DNA of 64,000 bases from Candidatus Zhuqueibacterota bacterium. Its GTDB lineage: Bacteria > Zhuqueibacterota > Zhuqueibacteria > Thermofontimicrobiales > Thermofontimicrobiaceae. A program made the translations under genes and the position numbers. How positions within the stretch are numbered: the stretch's first letter is position 1; every line of letters begins with the position of its first letter. The notes under the pieces are model-generated. The model was not told where the DNA came from. It was given only the letters and a program-made list of their open reading frames with translations, and made no database searches. Positions 13,931 through 36,736 of the stretch are shown one piece after another. The stretch spans positions 954,774 to 1,018,773 of the forward strand of contig JBMOPW010000014.1 in the NCBI GenBank assembly GCA_049322915.1, given 5' to 3'.

Positions 13931-14072
13931 GATAAATTTCTCTTTTCATGTCCGAATGGGTGAATGCGCCGAACGGGACGCAGTGACGCTTCGCTATCAA
14001 GCCCGGCAAGCGATGGATGCCGCCGTTCAACCAATGTCCTGTTCCGGCCTGGTTGAACGGCTTCCCCTCCGG

Positions 14073-17085: not shown

Positions 17086-17100
17086 AATAATCCCTGAACG

Positions 17101-17514
17101 TTATTCGCCCATGGCTTTGATGATGACGCGCTTGCGTCGCATGCCATCAAATTCAGCGTAGTAAATTTGCTGCCACGGTCCCAGGTCCAACGCGCCGTTG
17201 GTAACCGGCACAATCACTTCGTGACCGATGAGCAGGTTCTTTAAGTGAGCATCGCCGTTGTCCTCGCCGGTGCGATGGTGGCGATACGGCAGACCCTCCG
17301 GAGCGAGCTTCTGCAGCCAGTCTTCGATGTCCTGAATCAGCCCGGATTCCGCGTCATTGATGTAGACGCCGGCAGTAATGTGCATGGCCGAGACCAGGAT
17401 CATCCCGTCCTGAATGCCGCTCTGGCTCAGTGCGTGTTCGACCTCGTGCGTGATATTGACGAAATCACGTCTATGCGGCGTGTTGAACCAAAGGTAATGA
17501 GTGAAAAATTTCAT
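17101..17514 (-). CDS. yjbQ: YjbQ/UPF0047 family protein
   Basis: Motifs [36 protein letters not shown]. Confidence 0.9.
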
Positions 17515-18160: not shown

Positions 18161-19202
18161 GAAAAACTCCTTGATAGTTGTATATTTAAAACACGAATGA
18201 GTCCAACCTGGACAATCCCTCAAAGGCTGGAAAAGGCACAGTCCCCGGGGCTGAAAAACCTATGGCACGCGCTCTGTCGAAAGAAAACTTACAGGACGGG
18301 TCGCGTCCATCGTTCAGCTAATTTAAATTCAGATTACAGTAGCATAATGTGCAGTTCGCCTACAATCGCTTAACCCGCATTATTCATTGTTTTTCTGAAG
18401 GAAGCGGGATAACCTGAATGGTACATGATTTTCAATTAAGCAGATAAAACTGAGTTTGATTTTGTATATCCACTGAACAATTAGAAAGAAAAAAACTTAA
18501 CGACAGTTTTATCTAATTTTATGAATAATTCAGGTTAAATTGAACAGTATGATTTCAGAATGAGATGAGCCTATAAAATAAACCGTGACGCATTTTCGTT
18601 GGTCAGCAATGCACTGTGAGGATAAATAAAACTGACCCATGGTTCAAAGTCAAACGGCGCCTATCAAGGTATTCTTTATATTCATCGTATTCGTTTTATA
18701 GAACTTTAATAAAAATAATCGAGAACTCAGCTCAGAGCGTTTTTAGATTGAATTGTTGAAGGTGGGAACGGTTGTGTTTGAAGACCAACAACACAAAAGT
18801 AACAATCGATCTGCATTTATCCACAAGCAAATGAAGCAATTTTGGTGTTCCCTCATTGGTGGATTTTGTTCGTATATGATAACCACATGACGATATCAAT
18901 GAACACTATCTATTTGAATCACTGATAGATTAAATTTAAAATGCAACACCGATTGAAACGTACCGGGGATTTATGTAAACTATGTGCCAGAATCTGTTCA
19001 TGGTTTTTTCAAGCGAAAAAAGTTAAAGAAATTAATATTAAAAATCAAGGGTTTTTTTAGATTTTAAAATTTAAGTTCCAAGGCGCAGCATAACATACAG
19101 GCAGGATTTAAAAAGAGCTTGACTTTGTTTCTGAATATGTTTACAATAGCCAGGGATACCCTGAGATGATAGTAAAACCAGTCATAAAAAGAGGATAGGT
19201 TC

Positions 19203-20093
19203 ATGAAAAAGATCAATGGAGTCCTGGTTCTGGGAGTGACGCTTATGATGTCTGCCTGTGTTAACAAAACTGCGGATTGGGGGGAACTGAAAAATTATAT
19301 CACCAAAGAAATGGAGAAATATAGCGCGGTGGTTGCTGTGGCCTTTGAAGATTTGCAGACCGGTGAGACATTCTTTTTTAATGAGACCAGACAGATGCAC
19401 GCTGCAAGCACCATGAAGACGCCTGTGATGATCGAGGTGTTCAGGCAGATGGAACTGGGCAAATTCAGTCTGACTGATTCACTGCTAGTAAAAAATGAGT
19501 TCCGCAGTATTGTCGATAGCAGCGTCTATTCCCTGGACTTTGGAGAGGACAGCGATGATGCGGTGTATAAAAATCAGGGCAAAAAAATGAGCATCAACGA
19601 TCTGGTTTATCAGATGATCACCGTGAGCAGTAACTTTGCGACCAATTTGCTGGTGGATCTGGTATCCGCGAAAAATATCATGCAGACCATGAGCGAAATC
19701 GGGGCGAAGAATATTCAGGTGCTGCGCGGAGTCGAAGACCCAAAAGCGTACGAGCAGGGGTTGAATAACACCACGGATGCCTACGATATGATGCTGGTGA
19801 TGAAAGCCATTGCACTGAAGCAGGTAGCGACACCGGCGGCCTGCGAAAAGATGACCGCCGTTTTATTGGATCAAAAATTCAACAATAAAATACCGGCCCT
19901 TTTGCCCAAAGAGGTGAAAGTCGCGCACAAAACCGGCTCCATCACGCGCATCGACCATGATGCGGCCATTGTCTTTGTGAAGCCGGATCATGCCTGCGTG
20001 CTGGTCGTTCTCACGAGCGGTTTTGATCAGCACAAAGACGCGGAGCAGGTCATTGCTCAGATTTCAAAAATGATCTATGATAAAGTATCCTGA
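19203..20093 (+). CDS. Class A beta-lactamase-like serine hydrolase, lipoprotein
   Basis: Lipobox MSAC, SxxK (ASTMK), SSN, HKTG. Confidence 0.88.
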   Translation: MKKINGVLVLGVTLMMSACVNKTADWGELKNYITKEMEKYSAVVAVAFEDLQTGETFFFNETRQMHAASTMKTPVMIEVFRQMELGKFSLTDSLLVKNEFRSIVDSSVYSLDFGEDSDDAVYKNQGKKMSINDLVYQMITVSSNFATNLLVDLVSAKNIMQTMSEIGAKNIQVLRGVEDPKAYEQGLNNTTDAYDMMLVMKAIALKQVATPAACEKMTAVLLDQKFNNKIPALLPKEVKVAHKTGSITRIDHDAAIVFVKPDHACVLVVLTSGFDQHKDAEQVIAQISKMIYDKVS

Positions 20094-20140
20094 GCCCAAC
20101 ATCTGAATTTGCACTGACGGCGAAGACAGATTTCAGCCGA

Positions 20141-21445
20141 TTATTTGGGCAGACCTTTGCGGGCGACTTGTTCCACGACCTCGACGAAATAGTCCAGCTC
20201 TTCGATGGTGGTGTACACGCTCGGCGTCACCCGCACCCCTTTGAATTCATCGTGGACGATGGGCACGGTGAAAATTTTATGATTGTTGAACAGGTAGTCG
20301 CACAAGGCGCTCGGTTCAATTCCGTGAATATGAAAATTCGCCAATCCGCACGATTGCTCCGGATCAAGGGATGTATTGAAACCTGTTCCGGGGAAGGAAA
20401 CGACTTGCCTGGCCCAGTAATTTTTCAGGTACCGCAAGCGTTCCTCCTTTCGTTTCGGGCCGATCCCGTTATGAAAATGAATTGCCTGGGCAATTGCGAT
20501 TTCGATGGGAAATGACCTCGTGCCGAGCGCTTCGAACTTGCGGATATCGTTGCTGTTTGGCTCGGCCGGCGCGAATAGCGGCCAGAGTTTCTCGATTTTC
20601 TCCCGCTTCACCCAGAGCATACCGGTGCCGAACGGGGCGCAGAGCCATTTGTGCAGGCTGGTCCCGAAATAATCGCAATGCAGATCTGAGATGTTGTATT
20701 CGATATGGGCGAACGAGTGCGCAGCATCGACAATCACTTCAATGCCGTGGGTGTGCGCCATGTCGCAAATTTCCTGCACCGGGGTGATCTGGCCGGTTAA
20801 AAAGATGACGTGGCTGATCAGAATGACTTTCGTTTTTTTCGTGATAGCAGCTTCCAGAATCTTCGTGATTTCGTGGATGTCTTTCGGCGGCGTGGGCAGC
20901 GATACTGTTTTGAGGACGACTCCCCGCCGTTTTTCCAACTGGCGCAAGGCATTCATCATGTTGGGATAATCCTGGTTGGTGGTGAGAATCTCATCGCCGG
21001 CGTTCAACGTCAGTCCGAATATCACCGTTTCCAGCGCCTCTGTCGTATTTCTGCAAATGGCCACCTCTTCGGACTCGCAACCTGCCAGTTGCGCCAATCG
21101 CGTCCGAACTGTTTCCCTCATGGGCCCGAGGACGGTCCACATGGTGTATGCCGGCGCTTCATTGGCAAATTCGTTGTGTCGGACGAGCGCGTCCTGAACA
21201 ACTTTTGGCGAGGGACTGACACCGCCGTTGTTCAGATTGATGATTCCTCTGGCGTTGGTGAATGCCCGTTGAATTTCAAACCAGAAATCTTCATCGGATG
21301 CCACCTCGCCCGGCGACAGATGGGCGACCCGCGCCGAAGCAGCCTCTATTTCCGAAGTGAGTGCGGGGTTAAAATAGGATCTCGTCACCATGGCGCCGGT
21401 GAAAATTCCCATCTGCTTTATGAATTCTCGTCGTGAATTTTGCAT
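20141..21445 (-). CDS. Tat-exported class V PLP-dependent aminotransferase (isopenicillin-N-epimerase-like)
   Basis: Twin-arginine motif SRREFIK, DAAHSF, PLP lysine in SLHKWL. Confidence 0.88.
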   Translation of the reverse strand: MQNSRREFIKQMGIFTGAMVTRSYFNPALTSEIEAASARVAHLSPGEVASDEDFWFEIQRAFTNARGIINLNNGGVSPSPKVVQDALVRHNEFANEAPAYTMWTVLGPMRETVRTRLAQLAGCESEEVAICRNTTEALETVIFGLTLNAGDEILTTNQDYPNMMNALRQLEKRRGVVLKTVSLPTPPKDIHEITKILEAAITKKTKVILISHVIFLTGQITPVQEICDMAHTHGIEVIVDAAHSFAHIEYNISDLHCDYFGTSLHKWLCAPFGTGMLWVKREKIEKLWPLFAPAEPNSNDIRKFEALGTRSFPIEIAIAQAIHFHNGIGPKRKEERLRYLKNYWARQVVSFPGTGFNTSLDPEQSCGLANFHIHGIEPSALCDYLFNNHKIFTVPIVHDEFKGVRVTPSVYTTIEELDYFVEVVEQVARKGLPK

Positions 21446-22976: not shown

Positions 22977-23525
22977 CGAAACCTTTCACCTCCTTTCATA
23001 TTTTTATTGTATGCCATAAAAGTTTAAACTTTCTTACCCCTGCCCGGAGACTTGAGTTCGGGGTAAGCACTACGAATATACTACTATTATGGGTTAAAAG
23101 TCAACTGTTGTGACAGTAAATTAATTTAAGAAATATTAACAACGTAGGCTGAGTTTTACCTCTTAAAAAATATATCGTAATGAGCTGAGAAAAGTTTAAT
23201 TTTTTTTGATGAATTTATTGTCATGTAATTCTCCTGTTGTCTCCCTTCTGCTCATTCAGTCATTCGGGACTCCTTTCAATACTACCTTGACCCACGAAGA
23301 TGAAGGATGTCGCAGCGCTTTCAAATGACGCATCACCAGAACAGTGCAGAGATAGGAAATCGGGCGATACTTGCAACATAACAATTGCAGCCCGGGGGAG
23401 TTGTGTTGTCAATGTAGTGGGCCGGCAAAACTACGTCATCAGAAAGCAACCAGAAAATGAATGAAAACGAACAGAATCTCTGTCGGCCTGCGGGGAAATG
23501 ACTTCACTGCGCCTGAGATTCAAAC

Positions 23526-24140
23526 TCAGACTTTCACCATTTTATCGAATGGCAGCCGATGAATCAGAAAATTGACATGGATGTCTTTGGCAAGATAGTG
23601 ATCGACCTTATGAAGCATGCCCATAAATAGCAGCCCGGTTTCAGATTGCTGAAGCGTCGCATCGATTCGATTGGCAATGAATCGATCCCGTTGCTGCAGT
23701 AATGTTGCACTATGCTGTTTGTATTCCTCCGACCTTTTTCTCTTAATGAACGGATTTTCAGCGGTCATTATTTTTTGAATGAAATGGTATTCCTTGAGTA
23801 GCAACTCTTTATCCTCAGTTCCCTCAAGCATGGCCCCGTTTTGAATGAGCGACCGGAGAAGGAGATGGTTCTTGCTGCCGCTGTTGGCTAATTCAGTCAC
23901 AATCTCCAATTCCCGACCGCAGACCGGCAATCCATCCTGGTACAGACGCGTGCTGGTCCAGATGACATTCAATTCCTGGACAGTGCGCGTGAGCCCTTCC
24001 CACATGTGGTCGATGGAAGTCACGTGGGCGTTGTAATGGGACTCCGAAAATTGGTGCGTATACGCCTGCCTGAACGAACTGGCCATTGAACCCAGGTCCG
24101 CTTCTGTATGAATGATGGGAACATAGATCAGGTCACGCAT
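23526..24140 (-). CDS. Hypothetical protein, last gene of the gas vesicle operon
   Basis: The ATG at 24140 overlaps the upstream gene's end. Conserved-looking motifs LIYVPIIH, LYQDGLP, LEGTED, RDRFIA, LFMGMLH. Confidence 0.8.
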   Translation of the reverse strand: MRDLIYVPIIHTEADLGSMASSFRQAYTHQFSESHYNAHVTSIDHMWEGLTRTVQELNVIWTSTRLYQDGLPVCGRELEIVTELANSGSKNHLLLRSLIQNGAMLEGTEDKELLLKEYHFIQKIMTAENPFIKRKRSEEYKQHSATLLQQRDRFIANRIDATLQQSETGLLFMGMLHKVDHYLAKDIHVNFLIHRLPFDKMVKV

Positions 24141-24522
24141 GGGCCATGACCTTTTCTTCAACAGCTTCCCGGCAGATGGATTCGATAAGGTTCAATTGTA
24201 TCGGCTTGGTGATGTAATCATAGGCGCCAAGTTGCATGGCCTGCCGCGCTGTGGTGATGTCGCCGTAGCCGGTCAGAATAATCACCACCGTTCTGCCCCA
24301 GCCTTCCAGTCGCGTCAGCCGTCTCAGCGTTTCGATGCCGTCCATTTCCGGCATGTTGATATCTAAAAAAATGATATCGGGTTTTTCAATGCCAAACATG
24401 GTAATCGCCTCGAAACCGTTCTGCGCATACGTCACGTGATAGCCCGATGTCTCCAATGTCCGGCGCAGAAGCAGAAAAATTTCTTCATTGTCGTCGACAA
24501 TCAATACGTTAATTTTATCCAT
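24133..24522 (-). CDS. Stand-alone CheY-like response regulator receiver
   Basis: Motifs LIVDD, FLDINMPEMDG, ILTG, DYITKP. Confidence 0.93.
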   Translation of the reverse strand: MDKINVLIVDDNEEIFLLLRRTLETSGYHVTYAQNGFEAITMFGIEKPDIIFLDINMPEMDGIETLRRLTRLEGWGRTVVIILTGYGDITTARQAMQLGAYDYITKPIQLNLIESICREAVEEKVMAHA

Positions 24523-25003
24523 GACGATTTCCTTTCAATGGATGAAGGCATGCTTCCACAATCCCGTTTTTTAATGTGGCCGAAATGTTAGACGGATCAA
24601 TCAAAAATGGGAGCACAATTTCTGTGGCGTATTTTCGCTTGATGCCGTCCATGCCTCCAATTGCTTCGAAGATGAGGATATCCCCTTCAACGGACAGATG
24701 AATATCTTGTTCGCTGACGAGACCGGGACAATCCACAATCAGAATGACCGATTCCGCTTCGGTGAAAATTTCCGTGTTCGGCGACTGGTATCGGTCGATG
24801 AGCATGCTTTTATGGAGCCGCGAAAATTTTGGCTCATTGATGAAGACCCAGGTTTTGGGCGTATGGCATGTCTCTTCTTCCCGGCGGGTCCGCTGTTGAA
24901 CTGCTGCAAGCGAGCTGATTTTCCGAATGTCAAAGGTCACAGCTCGCGCAGGGCGACGCGTCGATGTCTTGATATCCCTAAGCCCTTTTAGCCGCATCTT
25001 CAA
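24515..25003 (-). CDS. Hsp20/alpha-crystallin domain protein with a basic N-terminal extension
   Basis: C-terminal domain EIFTE...IVDCPG...[11 protein letters not shown]. The start is TTG 25003 or ATG 24997. Confidence 0.75.
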
Positions 25004-27113
25004 TCGCTTGAGTTAAATGCGCTTTCGTTATTTTTAACTTCGCGTAATCGAATGGACCCTCCCGGTGAGACTCGACAATGTCGCGGATCGCCGCCATGGA
25101 TGCAGAACGGCAGACGGATTCAATTTCTGCTCCGGACATGCCTTCCGTATCCTGCGCCAGGATTTTAATATCCACATTGCGCGCGAGGGGTTTGTTCTTC
25201 AAATGGACTTGAAAAATGGCCTGCCGTGTGTCTAAATCCGGCAGGGGAAGCTCGATCAAATAATCGAATCGTCCGGGACGAAGCACAGCCGGATCGATGA
25301 TATCCAGCCGGTTTGTCGCTGCAATGATGACGACATTTTTCAAGCCCTCGATGCCGTCGAGTTCAGTCAGCAATTGGCTGATGACCCGCTCGGTCACATG
25401 CGAATCGCCGGTACCACTGCCGCGCACCGGGGCGATGGCATCCATTTCGTCGAAGAACAGAATACACGGCGACGCCTGTCTTGCTTTTTTAAACAGCTCG
25501 CGCACGCCTTTTTCGCTCTCGCCAACCCATTTCGACAATAATTCCGGCCCCTTGATGGAGATGAAATTCACCTCACTCTCCGTGGCGACGGCCCTGGCTA
25601 GCAGCGTCTTGCCGGTGCCGGGGGAACCGTACAGCAGGATACCTTTCGGTGGAATGGTGTTCGAGACTTCAAATAACTCAGCGTATTTCAGCGGCCATTC
25701 GATGGCTTCAATGAGCCTGCGTTTCACTTGCTCCAGTCCGCCAACCTGATCCCATTTGACATTGGGCACTTCGATGGAAACCTCGCGGGTGGCTGATGGC
25801 TCCACTTCCTTCAGCGCTTCACGGAAATGCGACATAGTCACTTCCAATTCCAGGAGCGTCTCGATTGGGATAGAATCCATGTCAAATTCAATTTTTGGGA
25901 ATATGGTGCGAAGCGCGATCATTGCTGATTCGCGACAGAGCGCTGCCAGATCGGCGCCCACAAAACCATGCGTGATTTCTGCCAGGCGGTTGAGGTCCAC
26001 GTCTTCGGCTAACGGCATACCGCGCGTGTGAATTTGCAGAATTTGTTCGCGACCTTTCTTATCCGGGACGCCAATCGTGATTTCCCGATCGAACCGTCCC
26101 GGGCGTCGCAACGCCGGATCAATGGCGTTGGGGATATTGGTCGCGCCGATGACAATCACCTGGCCGCGTCCGGCAAGCCCATCCATCAACGCCAGCAGTT
26201 GGGCGACAACCCGTTTTTCCACATCGCCAACAGCGGATTCGCGCTTCGGTGAAATTGCGTCGATCTCATCCAGGAAAATAATGCTCGGCGCCTGCTTGCT
26301 GGCCTGCTCAAAAATGCCGCGTAGTTTAGCCTCGCTTTCCCCATAGAATTTGTGAATCACCTCCGGGCCGTTGATGGCAAAAAAGGAGGCATCGGTTTCA
26401 TTGGCCACGGCGCGGGCGATCAACGTCTTTCCCGTTCCCGGCGGCCCCAAAAGTAACACCCCTTTGGGCGGTTCAATGCCGAGTCGCTGAAAAATTTGCG
26501 GGTATTTGAGCGGCAGCTCAATCATCTCGCGAATGCGCTGTATCTCCTTGTGCAGACCACCAATATCTTCGTAGGAAATTTTATGCGATGGTTTTTTTTC
26601 ACCCTCCCGGGATTTTATCTGAATCGCTGTGGTTGGCTGTACAATCACGACGCCGTCAGGATGGGTCTCCAGCACAGTGAAATCCTGTGACCGGGAGCCG
26701 ATCAAATTCGCCCGGATGCGGTCGTTTTTCATCAGCGGCAGGCCTTCGATCAAACGACCGATATAGCGGCTCTCGCGCGAGCTGTCGGTGATCAGCGTGA
26801 GCGGATCCAAAATTAATTTCTCGGCGTTTTGCGATGCAACTTTTTTAATTTTCACGCGCTCATCAATGCCCACTTTGGCATTCTCCCGGATCAGGCCATC
26901 GATTTGCACGAGCTGCTTGCCCCGGTTTTCAGGATAGGTCGGCATGAGTTTCGCGACAGTGGTCTGTTTGCCAACGACTTCCACAATATCGCCGACGCCG
27001 GCGCCAATGGTCTGCATATCTGCCGGATCGATTCGGGCGATGCCGCGGCCCACATCTTTGGAGAATGATTCAGTAACGCGCAAGGTCAACACGGGATGTT
27101 CATTCGATTTCAT
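24978..27113 (-). CDS. Cdc48/p97/VAT-family double-ring AAA+ ATPase
   Basis: N-domain ([10 protein letters not shown]), D1 with [20 protein letters not shown]2 with [25 protein letters not shown] before the ATG at 27113. Confidence 0.95.
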
Positions 27114-27160
27114 AGCTGTAAACTCCTGCAAGCGTGGGAAAAGACATCCATCGGATTATC

Positions 27161-27685
27161 TTATTTGTTGATTTTAATTTCCAGAATGCCATTTTTGAAC
27201 ACATAGGATAGCGACTCCACCTTCACTTTGGCAGGCAGCAAGAGCTCCTTGTGATATTTTCGTTTTGCATGGTTGGCATCAATGGTCAACACATCCTCGT
27301 TCAAATCCAGCTTCACATCCTTTTCCTCGATGCCGGGCATCTCGGCGATCACCTGAATTTCGTGCGCTTCTTCGAAAATGTCCGTCATCGGCTCGCGCAC
27401 TTCATCGACGATGGGGCCGTGGTCGCTTTTTTTAACATTGCCAAATGACTGAACTTCGGGTTTGCCGCCAGTGCCCATTTTAATCGAGAAACCATACACG
27501 CCTTTTAAATCCTTTAACGGACCTTCGCCGTTGAATTCCTGAGTGCGCTCCTTGATGATTTGGCCTTTTTCAGACAATTCACTCACCAGGTCCACCAGAT
27601 TGCCAAGGCCCTTGAACAATCCGCCTAAGCCCAGATCAATATTGATCTGATGCTCGTCATCTTTCTTTTTCTTAGTCTGTTCCAT
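27161..27685 (-). CDS. Hsp20/alpha-crystallin protein (GvpH-like)
   Basis: Motifs GVYGFSIK, FGNV, REPMTDIFEE, IAEMPG, FKNGILEI. Start moved to the ATG at 27685. Confidence 0.88.
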   Translation of the reverse strand: MEQTKKKKDDEHQINIDLGLGGLFKGLGNLVDLVSELSEKGQIIKERTQEFNGEGPLKDLKGVYGFSIKMGTGGKPEVQSFGNVKKSDHGPIVDEVREPMTDIFEEAHEIQVIAEMPGIEEKDVKLDLNEDVLTIDANHAKRKYHKELLLPAKVKVESLSYVFKNGILEIKINK

Positions 27686-27986
27686 TGAAGGTTCCTTTAT
27701 TCTGAGGTTGTTCCAATTGCGTGATTCGCTCTTTGAGCTGTTTATTTTCTTCTTCCAACTGTTTTGCATTCCGGCTCAAATAGGAATCCGTCTCCCACCA
27801 GTTGATGCCCATTTCAATCGCCTTATCCACAGAAGCGATCATCAGCCGGATTTTAATGGTGAGCAATTCAATATCTGCAATCTTGATCTGGATGTCCCCT
27901 GCGATGACAATCCCTTTGTCCAATACCCGTTCCAGAATATCCGCGAGATTCGTGGAATATATTCCGTGGGTGATCTCTTCCGACAT
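27672..27986 (-). CDS. gvpJ: Gas vesicle protein GvpJ (GvpA/J/M family)
   Basis: LADILERVLDKGIVIAGDI...IELLTIKIRL...GINWW followed by a coiled tail. SD AAGGAG. Confidence 0.9.
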   Translation of the reverse strand: MSEEITHGIYSTNLADILERVLDKGIVIAGDIQIKIADIELLTIKIRLMIASVDKAIEMGINWWETDSYLSRNAKQLEEENKQLKERITQLEQPQNKGTFNGTD

Positions 27987-28025
27987 GTTGTTCTCCTTGA
28001 TCATTTATCCGATGCGGACAGCAGC

Positions 28026-28565
28026 CTACATCAGATTTCCCAGCGGCCCAAGTTCAATATTCAGTTCTTCTTGCTGCAGCCCGAAGACCAGTTTTAATTC
28101 TTCTACTTTCTTATCGAGCGCCAAAAAAGTCAGTCCCAATTTCTGAATTTCGACGGACGCCAGCGCACCTGCCTGAATGCGGCGCATGGCTTCGCGTTCC
28201 ATGAGCCGTTTGATCAACACAACCAGCGTCAGCACTAATTTGGCGAGCCCCTGTTCTGCCTCCTGCGGTTTTGGGAATTGCAAGTAGTGCGAAATATTGC
28301 TCTCTGCTTTGGCTATTTCCTGCTCAAGTTTTTGGATGTATTCGCACTCCTCCAGCGTCGGCTCACGGTCGGGATTCATCCCTGAGCGACCATGCGCCGC
28401 ATCCAATTTGGAAATCGATGTAGCAATCAGCCGAATTCCAATATAGATCAGATCAATATCGGCTACGCGTACGGTCAGGTCGCCTGTCACAACAGCGCCT
28501 GTCTCGATCACCCTGTCCAGCGCATCCAACAGCGTCACATGAGTCTGTTCGCTTCTTTGCTGCAT
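28026..28565 (-). CDS. gvpK: GvpJ/M/S-family domain fused to GvpK
   Basis: N-terminal TLLDALDRVIETGAVVTGD...ADIDLIY; C-terminal GLAKLVLTLV...LMEREAMRR...LNIELGPLG. Confidence 0.85.
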   Translation of the reverse strand: MQQRSEQTHVTLLDALDRVIETGAVVTGDLTVRVADIDLIYIGIRLIATSISKLDAAHGRSGMNPDREPTLEECEYIQKLEQEIAKAESNISHYLQFPKPQEAEQGLAKLVLTLVVLIKRLMEREAMRRIQAGALASVEIQKLGLTFLALDKKVEELKLVFGLQQEELNIELGPLGNLM

Positions 28566-28567
28566 GA

Positions 28568-29371
28568 TTAAACCTTCGCAAAATGATAGGGCGGCCAGGG
28601 ACCACTGAATTCAATCTGCAGTCCGTTATCGTTTAAAGATGCCCGGGATTTTTCCACCTCCTGCTTGAAAGCGGACACAGCGTCTTCGGGAATCAGGAAA
28701 ATGGCGTTCAAAATCATCGGTTCCTGTCTGCCGGTCAATTCCTTCTCCAGCAATTTCCCGCGAACGCTCTGACAGGCGTGGTGCGCCAGCGCGTCAAAGA
28801 CGGATGTGGCATAGGCCTCAGTACGTTGCGCCGCAGCAACCAACATCTGCTCATTCAATTCCGATTGAAAAAAATAAGCCATACCTCGTGGCATGGCCTG
28901 GATTTGCTTCTTCTTGAGCAGAAGCACCGGGTTGTTTTCCAGCACTTCCGATTGAATTGGATTCGGGTCCGCGACGTAGAGCTTGGCGCTCCATTCCTGC
29001 CTGTGATGCAATGAAGCCAGGCATTGGGAATATTTCCCGGATTCATGCGTGATGGTCTGTTCCACCGTTTCCTGATTCAGGAAAACAGTGCCAAATCGCA
29101 TGGGAATGACCGGGCAAATGCATCCATCCGCGTTCATGGCGGATTCAATGACAGCTTCGTGCCGTTGCGCCATGCCCTTGATCCAGTTCAGGTCGTCCTG
29201 CGCTTTTTGCTGGATTCGTTCCCGGTCCATTTGCTCCATGGGAACCTGGCTCACGATGGCCTCGAGATTTTGCACCGGCAGTGCGAATGCCCTGTTCTGC
29301 TCAAACAATCCCGGCGCTGAAAAAGCCGCATCTCCTTTTTCGCGGATGCAATACAGATAAAAACCGTTCAT
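28568..29371 (-). CDS. gvpL: GvpL/GvpF family gas vesicle protein
   Basis: Motifs YLYCI, HEAVI, IPMRFGTVF, ILNAIFLI, SGPWPPYHF. Confidence 0.9.
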   Translation of the reverse strand: MNGFYLYCIREKGDAAFSAPGLFEQNRAFALPVQNLEAIVSQVPMEQMDRERIQQKAQDDLNWIKGMAQRHEAVIESAMNADGCICPVIPMRFGTVFLNQETVEQTITHESGKYSQCLASLHHRQEWSAKLYVADPNPIQSEVLENNPVLLLKKKQIQAMPRGMAYFFQSELNEQMLVAAAQRTEAYATSVFDALAHHACQSVRGKLLEKELTGRQEPMILNAIFLIPEDAVSAFKQEVEKSRASLNDNGLQIEFSGPWPPYHFAKV

Positions 29372-29601
29372 GAATGTCGTCCCTGAATTTCGGAGATTCG
29401 CGAGACAATCTGCTCTTCGAGAATGACGTATTGTTCCATGTCGATCTCGTTGGTCTCCAGTTGAATTTGCGCTTCCAGCAGTTTTCGCTGCCAGTAGGTT
29501 ACATTATTCAATTCCTGATCCACAGCCTTGTGAATTTCTTTGAAGATGCCGAATAAGCCCTTGACAGGCAGAGCTAATAAATCGTCTATGAAAATGGCCA
29601 T
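29368..29601 (-). CDS. gvpG: Gas vesicle protein GvpG
   Basis: IDDLLALPVKGL...IHKAVDQEL...EIDMEQY; lies between two gvpF/L genes. Confidence 0.82.
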   Translation of the reverse strand: MAIFIDDLLALPVKGLFGIFKEIHKAVDQELNNVTYWQRKLLEAQIQLETNEIDMEQYVILEEQIVSRISEIQGRHS

Positions 29602-29694
29602 AACAGTCACTCATGCGTTGCGATGATCACCAAAGAATTTCCCAACAGCATGGGCCGCGCTGTTGGGATGAATTCCATGAAGGGATTGCAGGTC

Positions 29695-30465
29695 TCAATT
29701 GAGACCCAATTCCAGAATGTTGATGTCTATTTCCACGAAATTGTACGGTGGTATGGGCCCGACATATTTGATAATGAATCGCTTCAGATTCTCTTCATTG
29801 AGCGCGCCAACCCAGGCATCGAACAATTTCTCCTGGTCGCTGTCGACTAAAAAGGAAGCATTGACCACCATCTTGTCCCCGATGATGTTGCCCAGACGAT
29901 AATCGATGCAGAGTTCGCGCAGCGGGGAGAGGATCCGTTCGCTCTCTCGCTTTCGTTTTTCGATGAGTGCGTTCTCGACCAGCTTGCCGACCTCGATTCG
30001 CTGAAAGTAGGACTTTTCCTGCGGCAGGGTCAAAAGGGAATCACGCAGCTTTTTGATCTGATTGTTTTCATTCAGAATTTCGTTGTAGGCAATGTCACTG
30101 TCCCAGAAGACTTTCAAACCCAATTCTCTTTTTCCGCGCAGCCGGTCAAGATAGTCCTGAAATTCATCGTACCGCTTTTCCAGAATGGCCATGATGTTCT
30201 GTTCATTCCTGGCAATGGTGGCAAATCGAACTGGCAGCGGGTTTAAATTCCTGGACAGCGCTTCTTCAATGACTTTTTGATGCGCAAGATAATTTTTACT
30301 GAGCAAGGGGTAGTTCACAATGGGCGTGTCGCTGATGACAGCGCCGATATGATTGAAATGAATGCTGTGAACCGGCGCCGGAGTCTCTCCAATATTTCGC
30401 GATCCAAATGTTTGACTTTTTTCTTCTTCAATAATGCAATAAATGTATTTCCCGTTTTCAGACAT
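29695..30465 (-). CDS. gvpF: Gas vesicle protein GvpF
   Basis: Motifs GKYIYCII, HQKVIE, LPVRFAT, ELGLK, NASFLV, YVGPIPPYNF. Start moved to the ATG at 30465. Confidence 0.92.
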   Translation of the reverse strand: MSENGKYIYCIIEEEKSQTFGSRNIGETPAPVHSIHFNHIGAVISDTPIVNYPLLSKNYLAHQKVIEEALSRNLNPLPVRFATIARNEQNIMAILEKRYDEFQDYLDRLRGKRELGLKVFWDSDIAYNEILNENNQIKKLRDSLLTLPQEKSYFQRIEVGKLVENALIEKRKRESERILSPLRELCIDYRLGNIIGDKMVVNASFLVDSDQEKLFDAWVGALNEENLKRFIIKYVGPIPPYNFVEIDINILELGLN

Positions 30466-30482
30466 GACAGTCCCCGTATAAT

Positions 30483-31495
30483 TTAAAATTCGGCTGAATG
30501 GATGAGCACCGTTTCCTCGATAGCATGCTTGTCGAATGAGTAGCGATAATTCTGACAATAGGTTTCCAGAACACGTACCGCATCGGTTATCTCCCTGAAT
30601 TGCCGCTCGGCGTGCGTCATATCGGAATTTTTATCAGGATGACACCTGGCGGCCAGGCAGTGATAGGCGGATTTAATTTCGAACATTGTAGCGGATTCGG
30701 ACAGGCCCAGAGTCCGTCGGGCATGATCGATGAGAGCGTGGTCTGTGAGTTCCAGCTTCAAATTGGCAAAACTGACAGGAGGCATGGGGCCAATGTATTT
30801 GAACGTCAATTCAGATTCATATTTTTTGGCCAGATCATTGACTTTCTGGTCGAAGCTGGTTTCCGCTTCTCTCTCAACCAGAAAGGAGCCATTGAAAATC
30901 ATCCCTTCATTAGACAGCGGCCCGCAGACACACTGTTGCTCCCCGTTGCACAGCGCCCGTAGAATATCCTCGACCAGCTCTTTTTCTTTTTTTGCCATTG
31001 TATCAAAAATCATTTTACCAATGTCGATGCGGGCGCACTGCTTGTCCACCTCGGAGAGCGAATTCATCGCATTCACCCTGGCGAGGATGCCCGGATCAGT
31101 CCGGGAGATTGAATTGATCCATTCCAGCTTGTTGGCCGATGCCTGAACAACCGCTCGACCTTGCCACGAATGCGTTGGAACAGCGTTTTGAATTGGATAT
31201 AGGCTTGCCCCAGGATTTTCTGAACAGAAGTTTCGTCATCAGCGACATTGCCGAACTGGAGCGGAATAATCGTATGCAGCCGTGACACATGTTCAATGGC
31301 CAGTTGATGGCCCCGGACAAGCTCAGTCAGAAGCGCTTTATCAAGACGGTCGAAGGTTATCAGGGGATGGTCGCTCACAACAGCGGCAATGTCTTTATAA
31401 CCGATAGTGTAGACGTTATTTTGGGTTCCAATTCCAATAGGTCCAAAACTGCAGGGCTGGTCTGACTCAATAAATCCATAAATGTAATGGCTCAT
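30483..31495 (-). pseudogene. GvpF/L-DnaJ fusion gene split by a 1-nt frameshift near 31152-31153
   Basis: ORF 31073..31513 is the GvpF N-half and 30483..31076 is the C-half plus a J-domain (LGL...IKSAY...HPDKN). One added base joins them as GKVExVVQASANK... Confidence 0.8.
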
Positions 31496-31529
31496 TCCTG
31501 TGCCCATCTTCAATTGTTTTAATCAGAAA

Positions 31530-31838
31530 TCAAACTTTAAATTCACGGGTTTGCCAGCGGTTCTTCACCACTTTGGTTTGCTTTTTCAGGTCGGGTTGAT
31601 TCTCATTTGAATTGAACTCATTTTCAATGGATTTTGCAATTTCCGAGTCGATGGCCCCGATCCGTTCTGCATTTCTGGAATGCCGTTGCGCTAAAACCTG
31701 GTTATCTTTTTGAAGCAGTTGACGTTCGTTATCCAGCATGAAAAGGGATAAGAATTTGGAACGTCGTCTTTTGGATATAGAACGAATATGTATTTTCTGG
31801 CTCGTTCGAATGTCATTAATGCCAGCAAGTCGTGACAT
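31530..31838 (-). CDS. Basic coiled-coil gas vesicle accessory protein (GvpV-like)
   Basis: SD GAGGTG, position after gvpN-gvpO, coiled coil FLSLFMLDNERQLLQ... Confidence 0.65.
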   Translation of the reverse strand: MSRLAGINDIRTSQKIHIRSISKRRRSKFLSLFMLDNERQLLQKDNQVLAQRHSRNAERIGAIDSEIAKSIENEFNSNENQPDLKKQTKVVKNRWQTREFKV

Positions 31839-31871
31839 GGTTCACCTCTTGAATTTTTCACTGCATGAAAT

Positions 31872-32126
31872 TTACGTCGACTCTTTTCGCGGGCGCATGC
31901 TTTTTCTGCTATAGCCGACAACTTCGTAATTGGAATCTATCTGAACATCATAAACCGCTACCATATCGTCCTGGGCTATTTTTCGCATATACTCTGTTTC
32001 TTCAATGCTTTCAAAAATTGAAGACCAGCCGGAGTCGACCGGCTTCACTTCAACGACCCGTCCATTTTTCCCCAGCGCGCTGTTAAAAAAAGCGACTACT
32101 GATGCAACAACTTTTGCGACAGCCAT
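31872..32126 (-). CDS. gvpO: Gas vesicle protein GvpO/GvpR family
   Basis: VVEV...GW..IFESIE...AVYDVQID...VVGYSR. SD GAGG before the ATG at 32126. Confidence 0.78.
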   Translation of the reverse strand: MAVAKVVASVVAFFNSALGKNGRVVEVKPVDSGWSSIFESIEETEYMRKIAQDDMVAVYDVQIDSNYEVVGYSRKSMRPRKEST

Positions 32127-32134
32127 AGTTAACC

Positions 32135-33049
32135 TCAGCAATGAATTGCAAGGAGCTCTTCAATCGTTTTCATTGTGCTCGATTTCGGAGCGCCATTGAA
32201 TTTGTATGTATGAATTTCCGATGTCAAAACATCCAGGCAAATTTTTTTGAAGCGAACATTTTTTCTGGATGGAATGATTTTCAGTAGTTTAATGATGCGA
32301 CCGATCTTGATGGCATCCCGGAGCGTTGGTCGGTCTGTGTGCCCGTCCTGCGAGCGAAATGAGCGCACCAGGTGCACGATTTTTTTGGCATGCTGATATT
32401 TAATACCGGCGCGCCTCTGGGTGATCTGAATTTCGGTCTCCGCATCCAGGCAGCCCAGATCAATGGTAATCATTCGGTCGAGCAGCGCATCCTGAGCCCG
32501 ATGAATACCGACGTACTCCTGGGGATTGCTGGTGAAAATGACGCGAAATTCAGGATGGACATTGATGTAAACTTCCCCTTTGGTCTGGCCGGGAAGGTCA
32601 AGCATTTTTTCTTCAAGAATCGCCAGCAGGATGTTATTCGCCTCCGGCCTGGAACGCGTGAATTCATCATAAATCAGAGTGAGACCATTTTTGCAGGCCA
32701 GCGACAATCGTTTATCGATCCATTGCCGGTCGATTCGCTCCTCGGTTTTGTAAACATGGTGAATAAAATTGTCCACGACTTTTTTTGACCGGATGCCCTG
32801 TTCTGCTCCGACCAGATCCGATGTCGACAATTCATCATCCCCGTGCATGATGATGATAGGCCGGCCAATTTCGGCAGCCAAATGCATGGCCAGCGAGGTT
32901 TTCCCTGTTCCGGCCGGCCCACAGAAATGAATCGGAAAACCTGCATGCATATAAATTCGGGCATAGGAGAGAATATCTTTCAAAAATGGAGTTAGAATAA
33001 AGTCATTGTCGACAATCGGTTCAAGCACAACAGCAGAGGTTTCTCTCAT
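32135..33049 (-). CDS. gvpN: Gas vesicle AAA+ ATPase GvpN
   Basis: Motifs GPAGTGKT, VVDNFIH, YDEFTRSRPEANN, FTSNPQEYVG, QDALLDR. Confidence 0.96.
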   Translation of the reverse strand: MRETSAVVLEPIVDNDFILTPFLKDILSYARIYMHAGFPIHFCGPAGTGKTSLAMHLAAEIGRPIIIMHGDDELSTSDLVGAEQGIRSKKVVDNFIHHVYKTEERIDRQWIDKRLSLACKNGLTLIYDEFTRSRPEANNILLAILEEKMLDLPGQTKGEVYINVHPEFRVIFTSNPQEYVGIHRAQDALLDRMITIDLGCLDAETEIQITQRRAGIKYQHAKKIVHLVRSFRSQDGHTDRPTLRDAIKIGRIIKLLKIIPSRKNVRFKKICLDVLTSEIHTYKFNGAPKSSTMKTIEELLAIHC

Positions 33050-33449
33050 GTTTATCTCCAAAATGCACATCTATTCGGATCGGCGCGAATTGACAGGCAT
33101 GACAATTCACCCTACCAGTTCCTGCGACCAAATCGGCGGACGGTGTGGCCTGGCTGTGAAACGATGATGTCATAACCCCACTGTACAGCACAGGTCAATC
33201 CCTTTTGTATCAGCGAATGCAGAACAATAAAGGACAACCCGAGCTTATTTGCAGGACGATGCTCAGAAGGGGATGCCAGTGCCAATTGGTCGAAGGCACC
33301 AACCTGTCCGAATCTCAACCTTCGTCCCAATGAATAATGCCTGATCAATCACCGCACAAGTATCTGTTCGAAGTCGCCAACGATCTGGTATTTTAGTAAA
33401 TTAGATAATAGCCAACATGGTTTCAGTCAATGTCGGCAATGCGAAGCTA

Positions 33450-34766
33450 TCAGTTTGGAAAATAGAGATTGTCCTGTTTCCTGACCAGATCTTTTTCGAT
33501 GAGCGCTTTGGCATACGGAATTAACTTCTGCCACTTCAAATCCATGGCCTTTCCGATGTCCGTCAATTTCGCGCCTGCTGCGCCGTGTTCTTTTATCAAA
33601 GCCAGGATTTTTTCTTCCGCGCCATTTTGTGAATTCTCAACCGGCATCGATGGAGCATTCTGTTCAGCCACGGGTGCTTTGGCCTGGGTTGTGCGCTGTT
33701 TCTTTGCGGAAGGCCGTTCACCTCGTCGCTTTCCATCGATGAGGTTGGCGATGTTTTGCCATTCCTGAATTGCTTCCTGATTCTCCGATTGCAGCCGGTT
33801 CAGCATGGTCGTTATCTCGGATTTCATGGCGTTCAGTGAATTCAACCGGCCCGTCATCGCTTCCTGAGCCTGACGAATTCGGTCGGCGTTCCCCTGTTTC
33901 AAATTCGTTTTCAAATCCGAAAACATTCCGGACAGATTGGAGCGCATCTCATCGTGCGCTTGATGAAAACCTGTCAGCATGCCGGCAATTTCCTGGCTCT
34001 GCTTCTGCTGATTTCGCTGAATCCGGGCCATCAGTTCGTTGAAACTCTGCAGCCGTTCTTTGTTAAAGCCCTTGAACGAAATTGTCTCTCTGAGAATTTT
34101 TGACATGGCAGCATGGTCATTTTTAAAGTTCTCAATCAATGCGCTCGAATTTTTAAACAGTGTGTCCAGGTAGTTTGCTCGTTCTTCAATTTCCTTCTCC
34201 GCCCGGGAAAACCGCTCCTGTTCCTGCAGCGATAGCCTTTTTTTGAACTCAGCCAAATCGGTCTGGAAATTATTCAGCAGTTGCTTCATGTCGTTGCTTC
34301 GGCTCCGATGCTGGTCACGAAATGTGTTGAGATTGCCGGCGACATCGGCTTTGTTTTGAGAAATTTGATTCTGCAAACCGGTCATGAACCGGTCAAATTC
34401 GTTCAGGCGCGCTGATCGGAAGTTATTCAACAATTCGGCGACAGAGTTGGAAAAATCAGAAGCGCCATCGCCTTTAAATGCAGCTAACAGCGTGGATAGC
34501 TCTTTCACCCTCTGGTTAATTTCCTCCTGAGTATCAGCGAATCGCTTTTTATTATCATTGGCCAGGTTAGTCTTCAGGTCATTCAACTTCTGTTTTAATG
34601 CCTCGCTCATTTCGTGATGCTCATCGCGAAATCGGTTCAGCATTTCCCGTGTGGATTGAGCTGTCACAGAATTCGACTTCACAATCGTGGCTATTGAATT
34701 CAATCGCTCATCAAAAGAGGTAAGTATCTCCTCTTTCAAGCGCCTCATTTCATCTAAATTAGACAT
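33450..34766 (-). CDS. GvpC-like helical repeat protein with a C-terminal winged-helix-like domain
   Basis: Sits between gvpA and gvpN. Recurrent F-x3-H-x2-M helices; the tail reads EEKILALIKEH..GAKLTDIG....KWQKL....KALIEKDLVRKQDNLYF. Confidence 0.7.
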   Translation of the reverse strand: MSNLDEMRRLKEEILTSFDERLNSIATIVKSNSVTAQSTREMLNRFRDEHHEMSEALKQKLNDLKTNLANDNKKRFADTQEEINQRVKELSTLLAAFKGDGASDFSNSVAELLNNFRSARLNEFDRFMTGLQNQISQNKADVAGNLNTFRDQHRSRSNDMKQLLNNFQTDLAEFKKRLSLQEQERFSRAEKEIEERANYLDTLFKNSSALIENFKNDHAAMSKILRETISFKGFNKERLQSFNELMARIQRNQQKQSQEIAGMLTGFHQAHDEMRSNLSGMFSDLKTNLKQGNADRIRQAQEAMTGRLNSLNAMKSEITTMLNRLQSENQEAIQEWQNIANLIDGKRRGERPSAKKQRTTQAKAPVAEQNAPSMPVENSQNGAEEKILALIKEHGAAGAKLTDIGKAMDLKWQKLIPYAKALIEKDLVRKQDNLYFPN

Positions 34767-34787
34767 ATAAAAATCTCCAGGTTAACT

Positions 34788-35444
34788 TTAATGGATCGCC
34801 TCATGGGCGTTATCTATATTCGCTTTTTGCAAGATAATTTTTTTGTCGTGAAGTTCATTCCACAGGGCTCTCATTTCACTGTGTTCGCGGGAAATTTCAT
34901 TCAACATGGATTTGATTTCGCTGTTTCGCTCCATCTGTTGCGCGCGAATTTTTTCGATCATCTTTTTGAAATCTTTAATCCGCATCTGCTCGCTGTTTTC
35001 GAGCAACGATTTTAAATTATTGGTCATCTCTTCCTGATCGCGACGAAATGAAATGATGTTTTTTTGAATGGCGTCCCCATTCTTTTCCAGTCTTGCGATG
35101 GTTTCATGGGATTGCTCAATTTTGCCAGTGGCTTATGATTCGAGGAAAATGGAAGCGAGATTTTTATGCTCATCGGCGAAGAGCCGCAACGTTAGCTTCA
35201 TGTCTTTTTCGCATTCAATTTGATAGAACTGTAAATCGCTCAGCATGAGGTCGAAGTCTTTCTTCCTCAATGATTTTTCGTGGGCTAACGAATCTTTTAG
35301 TCTGTCCCAATTAGTTTTCCTTTTTTCACGGCAATCATCCAGGGTGTTATAGGTAGAGCTCACAATCTCCTCGATTTTACTGACTCGCATGGTATACTTG
35401 TTGATAAAATCACGAGTGATTGTTTGCATTTGATCGATTTCCAT
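34788..35444 (-). pseudogene. Helical two-repeat (GvpC-like) protein gene interrupted by an in-frame TAA at 35133-35135
   Basis: ORFs 35133..35444 and 34788..35027 are in the same frame with an open linker. Internal repeats SLRKKDFDLML and QMRIKDFKKMI. Confidence 0.72.
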
Positions 35445-35603
35445 GGTACGGCATCCTTTTCAATTGGCATAACTGAAATGAAAAAAATGATTGCAGAAAA
35501 AGTGTCAGGAAATCTTTGGCAGAATATACTCATTGTAACAATTAGAGCTGGTTCAGAATTAAGGATATTCTGGCAAAAACCTCCTGATGAGGCAATCACC
35601 CGG

Positions 35604-35819
35604 TTATGCAGGATGCGCTGCTGTTGCAGTCAATCCAATCGCTTCTGCATACTTCAGATAGGTCTCGACTGAAGCCAACACAACTCGCGCTTCAATTGCG
35701 AGTAATTCAATACCGACCAGTGAGACTCGCGCCCACGCATCGATGACGATGCCTTTGTCCAGGATGCGGTCGATCACTTCGACGAGGCTTGAGGAAGCCA
35801 TAGTTTTTTCTACTGCCAT
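35604..35819 (-). CDS. gvpA: Major gas vesicle structural protein GvpA, copy 2
   Basis: [55 protein letters not shown]. Confidence 0.98.
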
Positions 35820-35894
35820 TGTAGTAACTCCATTTTTAATGTTAGTTGATTGCGATGAATCACGCCATTTTTAGGTGATCATCAATGTAATTGA

Positions 35895-36110
35895 TTACGC
35901 CGGGTGCGCTGCAGTTGCAGTCAACCCAATCGCTTCTGCATACTTCAAATAGGTCTCTACCGAAGCCAACACAACGCGCGCTTCGACCGCCAGTAATTCG
36001 ATACCCACCAGGGATACGCGTGCCCACGCATCGATGACGATGCCCTTATCCAGTATGCGATCGATTACTTCAACGAGACTTGAAGAAGCCATAGTCTTTT
36101 CTACTGCCAT
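35895..36110 (-). CDS. gvpA: Major gas vesicle structural protein GvpA, copy 1
   Basis: Same 71-aa protein apart from V/I at residue 42. Very strong SD AAAGGAGGTGA before the ATG at 36110. Confidence 0.98.
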
Positions 36111-36736
36111 ATTCTCACCTCCTTTCATGAATGGTATAATGTGGAAATTGCGCCTTTGAAGGCGTTTCGTTTTCATCATCTTTGAAATCTCATTACGGTA
36201 TTTTATTTTACAATTTCTATTCCATGAAATCAGGCTAAAATAATATGCGAATGGAGTCAGTATTTTCAATACATTAGTTACAATCGTTCATCATGAATGA
36301 AGAAGACAATTGAGGAAAAAAATACACCTTTATGGTGTGCATTCCATAGACTGAATTCCAGCACAGTTTAAAATCGACGGAATTTTATGAAACTTGAGAA
36401 AAAGAAAATGAATTAATGGTCAAATAGGTTGGGAAAAAGATAGAATAAATGACCGAAGAGAAAGAATCGAGTTAAGGCAGTGAGATTTCTGTTTCGGCCA
36501 GGAATTCATGTAAGTCATACGGAAAAATAAGTCAAACATTTGAGTATGAACTGCGTTTAAGAATTGTAAAACAAAGTGACGATGAACAATCCCTCGAAAT
36601 CGAATTCCAGTTACTTTGAAGATGACGAAATGAACATGCGGGTGTAAATTTCCCTGCATCCCAATTTTTTGCTTGACTTTCAGCTTATTATTTAATAATA
36701 TACCAAACACTTTGAACGAAAACTGGAGGTCTTCCT

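Follow-up and report, generated by a model that had tools for sequence, protein, structure and literature searches.

How a cell keeps the hydrophobic gas vesicle shell protein GvpA soluble, inserts it into a growing shell, and later removes it is a question on which one operon of Candidatus Zhuqueibacterota bacterium (NCBI GenBank assembly GCA_049322915.1) bears. In a 64,000-nucleotide (nt) stretch of contig JBMOPW010000014.1, hereafter the window, the minus strand between positions 23526 and 36110 carries a set of gas vesicle (gvp) genes that runs on into genes for small heat-shock proteins of the Hsp20 type, a Cdc48-type AAA+ unfoldase, a response-regulator receiver, and a 204-amino-acid (aa) protein without a family; a J-domain is fused to one of the GvpF proteins. 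What is such a set of protein-handling genes doing among gas vesicle genes? On the evidence of its sequence, this is a genuine operon for gas vesicles, and it represents a type that is widespread, uncharacterized, and equipped with a protein-handling module of its own. As for the role of that module, we lean somewhat toward quality control of the very hydrophobic GvpA/J/M shell proteins.

The Cdc48 unfoldase and its companions

Genes were assigned to families by Pfam and NCBIfam profile searches with curated cut-offs. Together with the open reading frame (ORF) list, these searches bear out the genes named in the original prediction, at the coordinates claimed for them and on the minus strand (Table 1). 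All genes of the operon are co-oriented. The core assembly genes gvpN, gvpF/L, gvpG, gvpJ/M, and gvpK all score above their family cut-offs, and the four PF00741 matches found in the 6.25-Mb genome all lie inside the operon. Most neighboring genes overlap by a few bases or are less than 100 nt apart, the widest gaps being 159 nt after the second gvpA and 379 nt before gvpN; the coordinates thus agree with the expectation that ORFs overlap or abut.

The unfoldase has the N, D1, D2 architecture of VAT from Thermoplasma acidophilum and of archaeal Cdc48, with matches for a double-psi-barrel N domain to CDC48_N (PF02359, 88 bits) and CDC48_2 (PF02933, 35.5 bits) and with two matches to PF00004. 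Its best solved relative is VAT itself (5g4f, E 3e-221, residues 9-679). Across 69 orthologues, the Walker A G-K-T and Walker B D-E residues are invariant in both AAA+ domains. As in VAT and archaeal Cdc48, both pore loops are aromatic, reading KFYGESE in D1 and KWVGESE in D2 of the window copy; the D1 loop is the same in 69 of 69 orthologues, and in the D2 variants listed, which account for 66 of the 69, the aromatic residue is always W, Y, or F.

In archaea, VAT/Cdc48 uses a C-terminal HbYX tail to dock on the 20S proteasome. The bacterial protein, encoded inside gvp operons, differs in this respect: HbYX is found in none of the 69 orthologues, the window copy ends in ...AAKRA as had been predicted, and the genome lacks the 20S proteasome pair, its one PF00227 match being a 191-aa open frame that would fit HslV alone. 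The motor therefore looks active, as judged from its motifs, and looks to be without a proteasome. A normal DnaK and a ClpB (the latter above cut-off) are also encoded in the genome, so the gvp-linked module is an addition to the general chaperone set. In a Syntrophaceae metagenome-assembled genome (MAG), one locus (L072) holds, besides a module-type Cdc48, a second Cdc48-like ORF after gvpN (19045-20322, E 8e-167) that is cut by the locus end.

The last gene of the operon had been described as hypothetical. It is true that the 204-aa protein reaches no family cut-off, but that description missed a conserved, TIKI/TraB-like member of the module. Its AlphaFold model is of high confidence (predicted local distance difference test score, pLDDT, 91; predicted template modeling score, pTM, 0.84). 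In VIA-align comparisons the model matched ChaN (2g5g, Z 10.0 over 156 residues, root mean square deviation 4.2) and HopBA1 (5t09, Z 8.7 over 147 residues, deviation 3.8), followed by PMT (2ebf, Z 7.2), EreC (6xcq, 6.8), 2qgm (6.8), and RRSP (5w6l, 6.3). Since a best Z of 7 to 8 is typical of this method without any clear match, only ChaN and HopBA1 exceed background. A Foldseek search of the model against the PDB returned nothing at E <= 0.001. Against the TraB/PrgY/GumN profile PF01963 the protein scores 15.7 bits, below the cut-off of 26.8; sub-threshold matches to this profile occur in 31 of 52 relatives (best E 7e-5), and a scan of the entire genome gave no PF01963 candidate but this one (E 0.04).

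According to the available text of a survey of the TIKI superfamily, its members include ChaN, HopBA1, PMT, Bcr135, and RRSP, share an active site of two His and two Glu residues with a conserved basic residue, and, within the wider TIKI/TraB hydrolase group, include peptidases (PMC6254334). Structures matched by our model appear in that list (2G5G, 5T09, 2EBF, Bcr135-type, RRSP). In an alignment of 52 sequences of the 204-aa family, H11, Q68, D69, N91, E117, and R151 are invariant and H177, E109, and E167 nearly so (>=90%). As judged from sequence conservation, the two His, three Glu, and one Arg among these positions are candidates for an active site of that kind. The family differs from canonical TIKI/TraB members in being much shorter (~200 aa). 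We regard a TIKI/TraB/ChaN-superfamily fold, with its parallel beta-sheet core, as reasonably secure for the predicted structure.

The family is large: when 8000 candidates were scored, 3317 clusters or more reached E <= 1e-5; the 120 clusters listed are unnamed or "hypothetical," with one exception that is evidently mislabelled. A metagenome search with a 10-sequence alignment returned 80 loci, and in these the 204-aa gene was accompanied by Cdc48 in 36, by gvp genes in 39, by Hsp20 in 40, and by receiver-containing ORFs in 69. Where at least 2.5 kb was available on both sides (20 loci), Cdc48 was present in 16, gvp in 15, Hsp20 in 17, and any of the three in 19. The 204-aa protein is a conserved member of the module and travels with Cdc48, Hsp20, and response regulators.

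Distribution of the module with gas vesicle genes

Cdc48 neighborhoods were compared in the best 80 genomic loci, in which the window proteins were searched by phmmer against six-frame ORFs of the fetched flanks. At least one gvp ORF was found near Cdc48 in 65 of these loci and at least three in 57. Within 3 kb of Cdc48, an Hsp20 gene was present in 74 loci, the 204-aa gene in 55, and a receiver-containing ORF in 47, and in many loci the module genes are located between gvp genes. Fifteen loci lacked gvp, of which 14 were shorter than 12 kb; the fifteenth is L023, described below. Seventeen J-domain ORFs were found in these 80 loci; each is joined to the C-terminal end of GvpF, and the HPD motif is retained in 16. 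Of the two Hsp20 genes that had been predicted in the window, the first passes its family cut-offs and the second falls below them; orthologues of this divergent second protein occur in three other loci (L005, L006, and L022).

According to the origin table of their records, the gvp-linked Cdc48 loci come from 11 named phyla and candidate division KSB1, in agreement with the prediction that chaperone-bearing gvp clusters exist in other phyla. The closest Cdc48 relative of the window copy (79% identity) is itself from candidate division KSB1 (locus L005, the same genome as G090) and belongs to the same GTDB class as the window genome, so that a KSB1-like host, proposed from flanking genes, is upheld.

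Within the host phylum the match between gvp genes and Cdc48 is strict. Among 151 sampled genomes, PF00741 was found in five, the window's own included, and full-length Cdc48 orthologues (74-100% identity, E = 0) were found in exactly those five and in none of the other 146. In three of the four other gvp-positive genomes, Cdc48 shares a contig with the gvp genes and lies a few kb or less from them. A Cdc48 match of 57% in one more genome of the phylum (G141) is cut by the contig end. A genome of the same genus as the window genome (G113) has neither gvp nor Cdc48. It does have both window flanks, at 72-79% DNA identity, and 14.4 kb between window positions 23222 and 37611 is without counterpart; the flank homology ends (C128 ~17012-17466 and C38 ~51576-52105) a few hundred bases from contig ends, which leaves the junction unreadable.

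Acidobacteriota offer a second comparison. Among 201 sampled genomes, nine had PF00741 above cut-off, and only two of the nine (G151 and G301) carry Cdc48, which is 60-61% identical and shares a contig with gvp in each. Seven more Acidobacteriota (among them G203, an unpublished genome used for no other result here) have Cdc48-like genes of 48-54% identity and no PF00741. The neighborhoods of six such genes (L085-L090) contained no gvp and no 204-aa gene, and Hsp20 in only one. In a FastTree phylogeny of 74 Cdc48 sequences, four of the five full-length non-gvp sequences fell outside the gvp-linked set; the fifth (L089) joined that set on a long branch (length 0.98), and its placement is unsure. 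The group of the window copy, L005, and L006 had a support of 99 and lay beside Nitrospinota. Acidobacteriota appeared at four or more places in the tree, which indicates horizontal transfer.

The original prediction had proposed a check for co-transfer of Cdc48 and GvpN. Pairwise distances of Cdc48 correlated with those of GvpN (r 0.83, 53 loci), Hsp20 (0.86, 72 loci), and the 204-aa protein (0.83, 58 loci). Over all comparisons among the four proteins r was 0.75-0.86, and none of 2000 permutations reached these values, which indicates that the locus moves or descends as a unit, although a common function does not follow from this alone. Taken together with the occurrence of Cdc48 and Hsp20 beside gvp across the genomic loci and in five of five gvp-positive genomes of the host phylum, this agrees with the co-conservation that had been predicted. 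By its neighborhoods and its presence and absence in the host phylum, this Cdc48 is gvp-dedicated.

Layout and lesions of the window copy

Transcription of the operon would begin with two gvpA genes and pass through three coiled-coil ORFs, gvpN, a weak gvpO, a 102-aa ORF, gvpF-J in two pieces, gvpF, gvpG, gvpL/F, a gvpJ-gvpK fusion, and gvpJ, then through Hsp20, Cdc48, the weak second Hsp20, the receiver, and the 204-aa ORF (Table 1). Downstream, the operon is bounded by an O-methyltransferase gene on the plus strand and an aminotransferase gene. Upstream there is ~600 nt of noncoding DNA, followed on the plus strand by genes whose products are an unknown protein, a rhomboid protease, and an amidase. 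A sigma-54 -24/-12 pattern, allowing up to 2 mismatches, had no match between 36110 and 36740, and the window as a whole had fewer matches than shuffled sequence. No Rfam family matched between 17500 and 37500. Outside the operon, a dispersed element of ~170 nt lies in a stretch of low GC content (0.41) at window positions 18370-18540; among the matches listed, 40 are in the window genome (73-100% identity) and 45 in G113.

Table 1. Features of the gas vesicle operon in window coordinates, in the order of transcription
Feature	Position	Strand	Evidence and remarks
Sigma-70-like promoter match, TTGAAA-18-TATTAT	36240..36269	-	Upstream of gvpA copy 1; consensus match only
gvpA copy 1, 71 aa	35895..36110	-	PF00741 57.7 bits (cut-off 25); strong AGGAGG ribosome-binding site ahead
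gvpA copy 2, 71 aa	35604..35819	-	PF00741 58.5 bits (cut-off 25); 1 residue differs from copy 1
Interrupted coiled-coil gene, GvpC position	34788..35444	-	In-frame TAA at 35133-35135
Coiled-coil protein, 438 aa	33450..34766	-	Four degenerate L-x-x-F-x-x-x-H-x-x-M motifs; weak winged-helix C terminus
gvpN, AAA+ ATPase	32135..33070	-	TIGR02640 336.4 bits (cut-off 266.8)
gvpO-like ORF, weak	31872..32141	-	PF05800 21.7 bits, below cut-off 25
Conserved 102-aa ORF	31530..31838	-	No Pfam or NCBIfam match
gvpF-J-domain fusion, HPD present	30483..31513	-	PF06386 N- and C-terminal halves; PF00226 50.9 bits (cut-off 27.8); split by 1-nt deletion
gvpF	29695..30558	-	PF06386 218.7 bits
gvpG	29368..29610	-	PF05120 40.8 bits
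gvpL/F	28568..29371	-	PF06386 176.9 bits
gvpJ/M-gvpK fusion	28026..28565	-	PF00741 48.1 bits and PF05121 88.2 bits
gvpJ	27672..28004	-	PF00741 65.5 bits
Hsp20a, archaeal-Hsp20-like small heat-shock protein	27161..27769	-	PF00011 31.5 bits (cut-off 20.8); NF041800 149.6 (cut-off 140)
VAT/Cdc48-type double-ring AAA+ unfoldase, 717 aa	24978..27131	-	TIGR01243 965.5 bits (cut-off 802.65); probable start ATG 27113
Hsp20b, divergent Hsp20-like	24515..25003	-	PF00011 17.5 bits (cut-off 20.8); NF041800 48.5 (cut-off 140); both below
Stand-alone response-regulator receiver	24133..24522	-	PF00072 106.8 bits
204-aa TIKI/TraB/ChaN-superfamily-like protein ("h211"), putative hydrolase	23526..24140 (ORF to 24161)	-	AF2 model, structural matches

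Several assignments of the original prediction needed revision here. Its "two GvpC-like genes" are in fact three ORFs, two of which are one frame cut by a TAA codon, and none of the three matches a GvpC family in Pfam or NCBIfam. They resemble GvpC solely in that they follow gvpA, have the character of helical repeats, and share a recurring motif, hydrophobic-x-x-F-x-x-x-H-x-x-M, which is present once in each half of the interrupted gene as well as in the 438-aa protein (33450-35444). The coiled-coil orthologue in L005 has 3.1 tandem copies of a 153-nt (51-aa) repeat, each with the same F/H/M motif, unlike the window genes, in which a TRF search found no tandem repeats at the DNA level. It is possible that these F/H/M-motif coiled-coil proteins make up a GvpC analogue family. 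The C terminus of the 438-aa protein has a match to HTH_45 (21.1 bits) that is below cut-off. The ORF proposed as gvpO is present, but its family assignment is only weak, and the ORF called gvpV-like has no family match. Weak relatives of this 102-aa ORF occupy the equivalent position in other loci; both it and the 438-aa protein resemble only Atlas clusters named "hypothetical protein." Two further ORFs were observed in L005. The first (3709-4113), which separates the coiled-coil gene from gvpN, encodes a CXXCXGXG zinc finger of the DnaJ type, and no remnant of it was found in the window gap at 33070-33450. The second is a separate gvpK after the 204-aa gene (13779-14174).

By speaking of a "repaired" cluster, the original prediction had hinted at lesions, and two exist, a nonsense codon and a frameshift. 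The ORFs at 35133-35444 and 34788-35027 form a single frame broken by the lone TAA; the orthologue in L005 (2030-2665) is an intact ORF of 212 codons, and its alignment to the window spans the stop. The second lesion affects the predicted gvpF-DnaJ gene. That the two are fused is supported by all of the J-domain ORFs mentioned above, but the gene itself is not intact. It is divided into pieces at 31073-31513 and 30483-31076, with a change of frame near 31152-31154, upstream of the J-domain. Aligned by tblastn with the intact 340-aa orthologue from L005, the window sequence follows frame A to ...GKVE and frame B from VVQA..., with one base missing. Programmed frameshifting was considered for this gene and rejected, as the shift site has no slippery heptamer and the L005 orthologue is read in a single frame.

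A Logan contig of sequencing run X1 (27,949 nt, word depth 71) matches window positions 30900-35500 with 0 differences and 0 gaps. As it is identical at both sites, the lesions are not an artifact of the MAG assembler; this run may be the source sample and hence is not an independent biological confirmation, and runs X2 and X3 do not cover the lesion sites. In another genome of the same class (G050), the orthologous Cdc48 (C136:54769-56913) contains one in-frame TAG, so lesions in such clusters are not confined to the window. With the first coiled-coil gene and gvpF-J broken, the window copy may no longer form vesicles. It may be decaying, and given the two lesions it is possible, if on the less probable side, that it is non-functional.

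Proposed shell protein quality control and its alternatives

Several of the module's parts could act on one client. Monomeric GvpA is bound, and perhaps chaperoned, by GvpF, as stated in the available part of one report (PMC9501494), and GvpA without assembly factors aggregates and causes proteotoxic stress, according to the accessible text of another (PMC12848028). A J-domain on GvpF would then recruit DnaK to GvpA: GvpF would bind monomeric shell protein, and the fused J-domain would pass it to the host DnaK. The small heat-shock proteins would hold shell protein that has escaped. Misassembled or aggregated shell protein would be threaded by the VAT/Cdc48-type hexamer through its aromatic pore loops, for reuse or for destruction. 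The TIKI/TraB-like protein is a candidate for the hydrolytic partner or for an adaptor, and the receiver domain may couple the module to a phospho-signal. In such a scheme shell protein would be the substrate, the parts would be in contact, and the motor and the hydrolase-like protein would be enzymatically active; the module could work in either direction, as an aid to assembly or in removal.

Such a line of work has a close parallel. In the bacterial sHsp-DnaK/DnaJ-ClpB disaggregation pathway, a holdase hands its clients to a J-protein and Hsp70, and a hexameric AAA+ motor then threads them. The window operon offers a holdase, an Hsp70-recruiting J-protein, and a hexameric AAA+ threading motor as well. 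It differs in that its motor is of the Cdc48 type and not an Hsp100 and in that GvpF, a binder specific for its client, carries the J-domain.

A number of observations weigh against assigning the module to shell protein quality control. A Thermodesulfovibrionales MAG locus with full 10-kb flanks (L023, 22.1 kb) has Hsp20, Cdc48, and the 204-aa gene and no gvp genes; either its gvp genes are elsewhere or the module can stand alone. Seven of the nine gvp-positive Acidobacteriota have no Cdc48 match at E <= 1e-120, which makes the module dispensable for gas vesicles generally, and we know of no such module in the studied clusters of Anabaena, Bacillus megaterium, and Halobacterium. Plain co-inheritance of an island would likewise produce correlated distances and co-location. 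The 204-aa protein has its tightest link with response regulators (in 69 of 80 metagenome loci), and a regulatory role fits this as well as a proteolytic one. Finally, in the window itself the J-domain gene and one coiled-coil gene are disrupted.

Alternatively, the module might be a disassembly machine, in which Cdc48 would pull GvpA out of vesicles that have collapsed or are not wanted, for cleavage by the TIKI/TraB-like protein under the control of the receiver; the cell would in this way actively lose buoyancy or recycle shell protein, and assembly would not be aided. Gas vesicles are very stable, and we know of no active route for their removal, two considerations that we count in favor of this alternative. 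Aromatic pore loops in both Cdc48 rings and the absence of a proteasome partner point in the same direction, as does the tight link to a protein that has a hydrolase-superfamily fold and the conserved His, Glu, and Arg residues, so far as the available text on that superfamily allows the comparison (PMC6254334); receiver or sigma-54 regulator genes also adjoin in most loci. However, the same data fit quality control on the assembly side, and a holdase together with a GvpF-J fusion suggests the handling of newly made protein. We consider a dedicated disassembly machine unlikely, though worth keeping in view.

A more specific proposal is that the Cdc48 hexamer and the TIKI/TraB-like protein form a two-part, ATP-dependent degradation system dedicated to pulling shell protein from the walls of vesicles that are collapsed or not wanted, under the control of the receiver. 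We hold this to be rather improbable on the sequences at hand. If true, it would join a motor without a proteasome to a peptidase of a fold not known to partner AAA+ unfoldases and would be the first active route of gas vesicle disassembly.

It is also conceivable, and to us decidedly doubtful, that Cdc48, the 204-aa protein, and the receiver control a regulator, for instance the sigma-54 response regulator of sister clusters, and not shell proteins. The logic would be analogous to that of GvpD acting on GvpE in haloarchaea. The frequent adjacency of the 204-aa gene to receiver-containing ORFs would suit such a circuit, and the long receiver ORFs of sister loci are REC-sigma54-HTH regulators that resemble GvrA of Serratia, so far as the available text describes it (PMC4982088). 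In Serratia sp. ATCC 39006, a two-operon gvp cluster includes GvrA (NtrC-type), GvpH, GvpZ, GvrB, and GvrC; the same text calls GvpZ a protein of unknown function, names Desulfomonile tiedjei as sharing the plan, and in its available part names no Cdc48 (PMC4982088). Sister loci have a sigma-54 response regulator beside Hsp20 and then two gvpF/L genes, which, compared by gene order, resembles the gvrA-gvpH-gvpZ-gvpF2-gvpF3 series given there. The window cluster differs from that of Serratia in having no sigma-54 regulator, and the lack of a sigma-54 promoter match upstream of gvpA likewise counts against regulation as the module's task. Hsp20, moreover, is the most constant neighbor of Cdc48 (74 of 80 loci), and a holdase would be unexpected in a purely regulatory circuit.

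That the module is a generic stress or proteostasis island which chance horizontal transfer has joined to gvp, with no vesicle-specific role, would suit a Cdc48 tree that mixes phyla, the signs that the locus moves horizontally, and the gvp-free L023, but it is very improbable in light of the strict match in the host phylum, the intercalation of module genes among gvp genes, and the separate 48-54% Cdc48-like clade that goes without gvp, without the 204-aa protein, and mostly without Hsp20.

In several phyla, gvp clusters hold an ArsA/Get3-like ATPase and Hsp20, for which an energizing or chaperone role was proposed from gene context, according to the available text (Castillo and Saier 2010, PMC2963123). 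The window operon resembles these clusters in having an extra ATPase and a small heat-shock protein. It departs from them in that its ATPase is a double-ring Cdc48/VAT AAA+ protein and not a two-domain ArsA, of which the window cluster has no gene, and it adds the GvpF-J fusion, the receiver, and the TIKI/TraB-like protein. In the literature searched, which left supplements and most subscription journals outside, we found no gvp cluster described as having an ATPase of the Cdc48/VAT type, a fusion of GvpF to a J-domain, or a protein like TraB/TIKI, and no paper on gas vesicles in KSB1. The present analysis adds that, within KSB1, gvp genes and this Cdc48 are strictly present or absent together, that a Cdc48 clade unlinked to gvp stands apart, that the module has a TIKI/TraB-like partner, and that the window copy has two lesions.

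To our knowledge, GvpN is the sole gas vesicle ATPase studied to date. The present results add a second motor, one of the unfoldase class, which is conserved in gvp clusters from 12 or more phyla. The genes conserved with it encode a holdase, a J-protein specific for its client, and a hydrolase-like protein, and all of these are candidates for test. Acoustic-reporter work chose the clusters with the fewest non-gvp genes (PMC10344784), and heterologous gas vesicle expression is hampered by the proteotoxicity of GvpA, according to the accessible part of a recent account (PMC12848028). The accessory genes described here may be the answer of natural hosts to that proteotoxicity. The results also define a clade of bacterial Cdc48 proteins whose client can be predicted, something rare among bacterial Cdc48 homologues.

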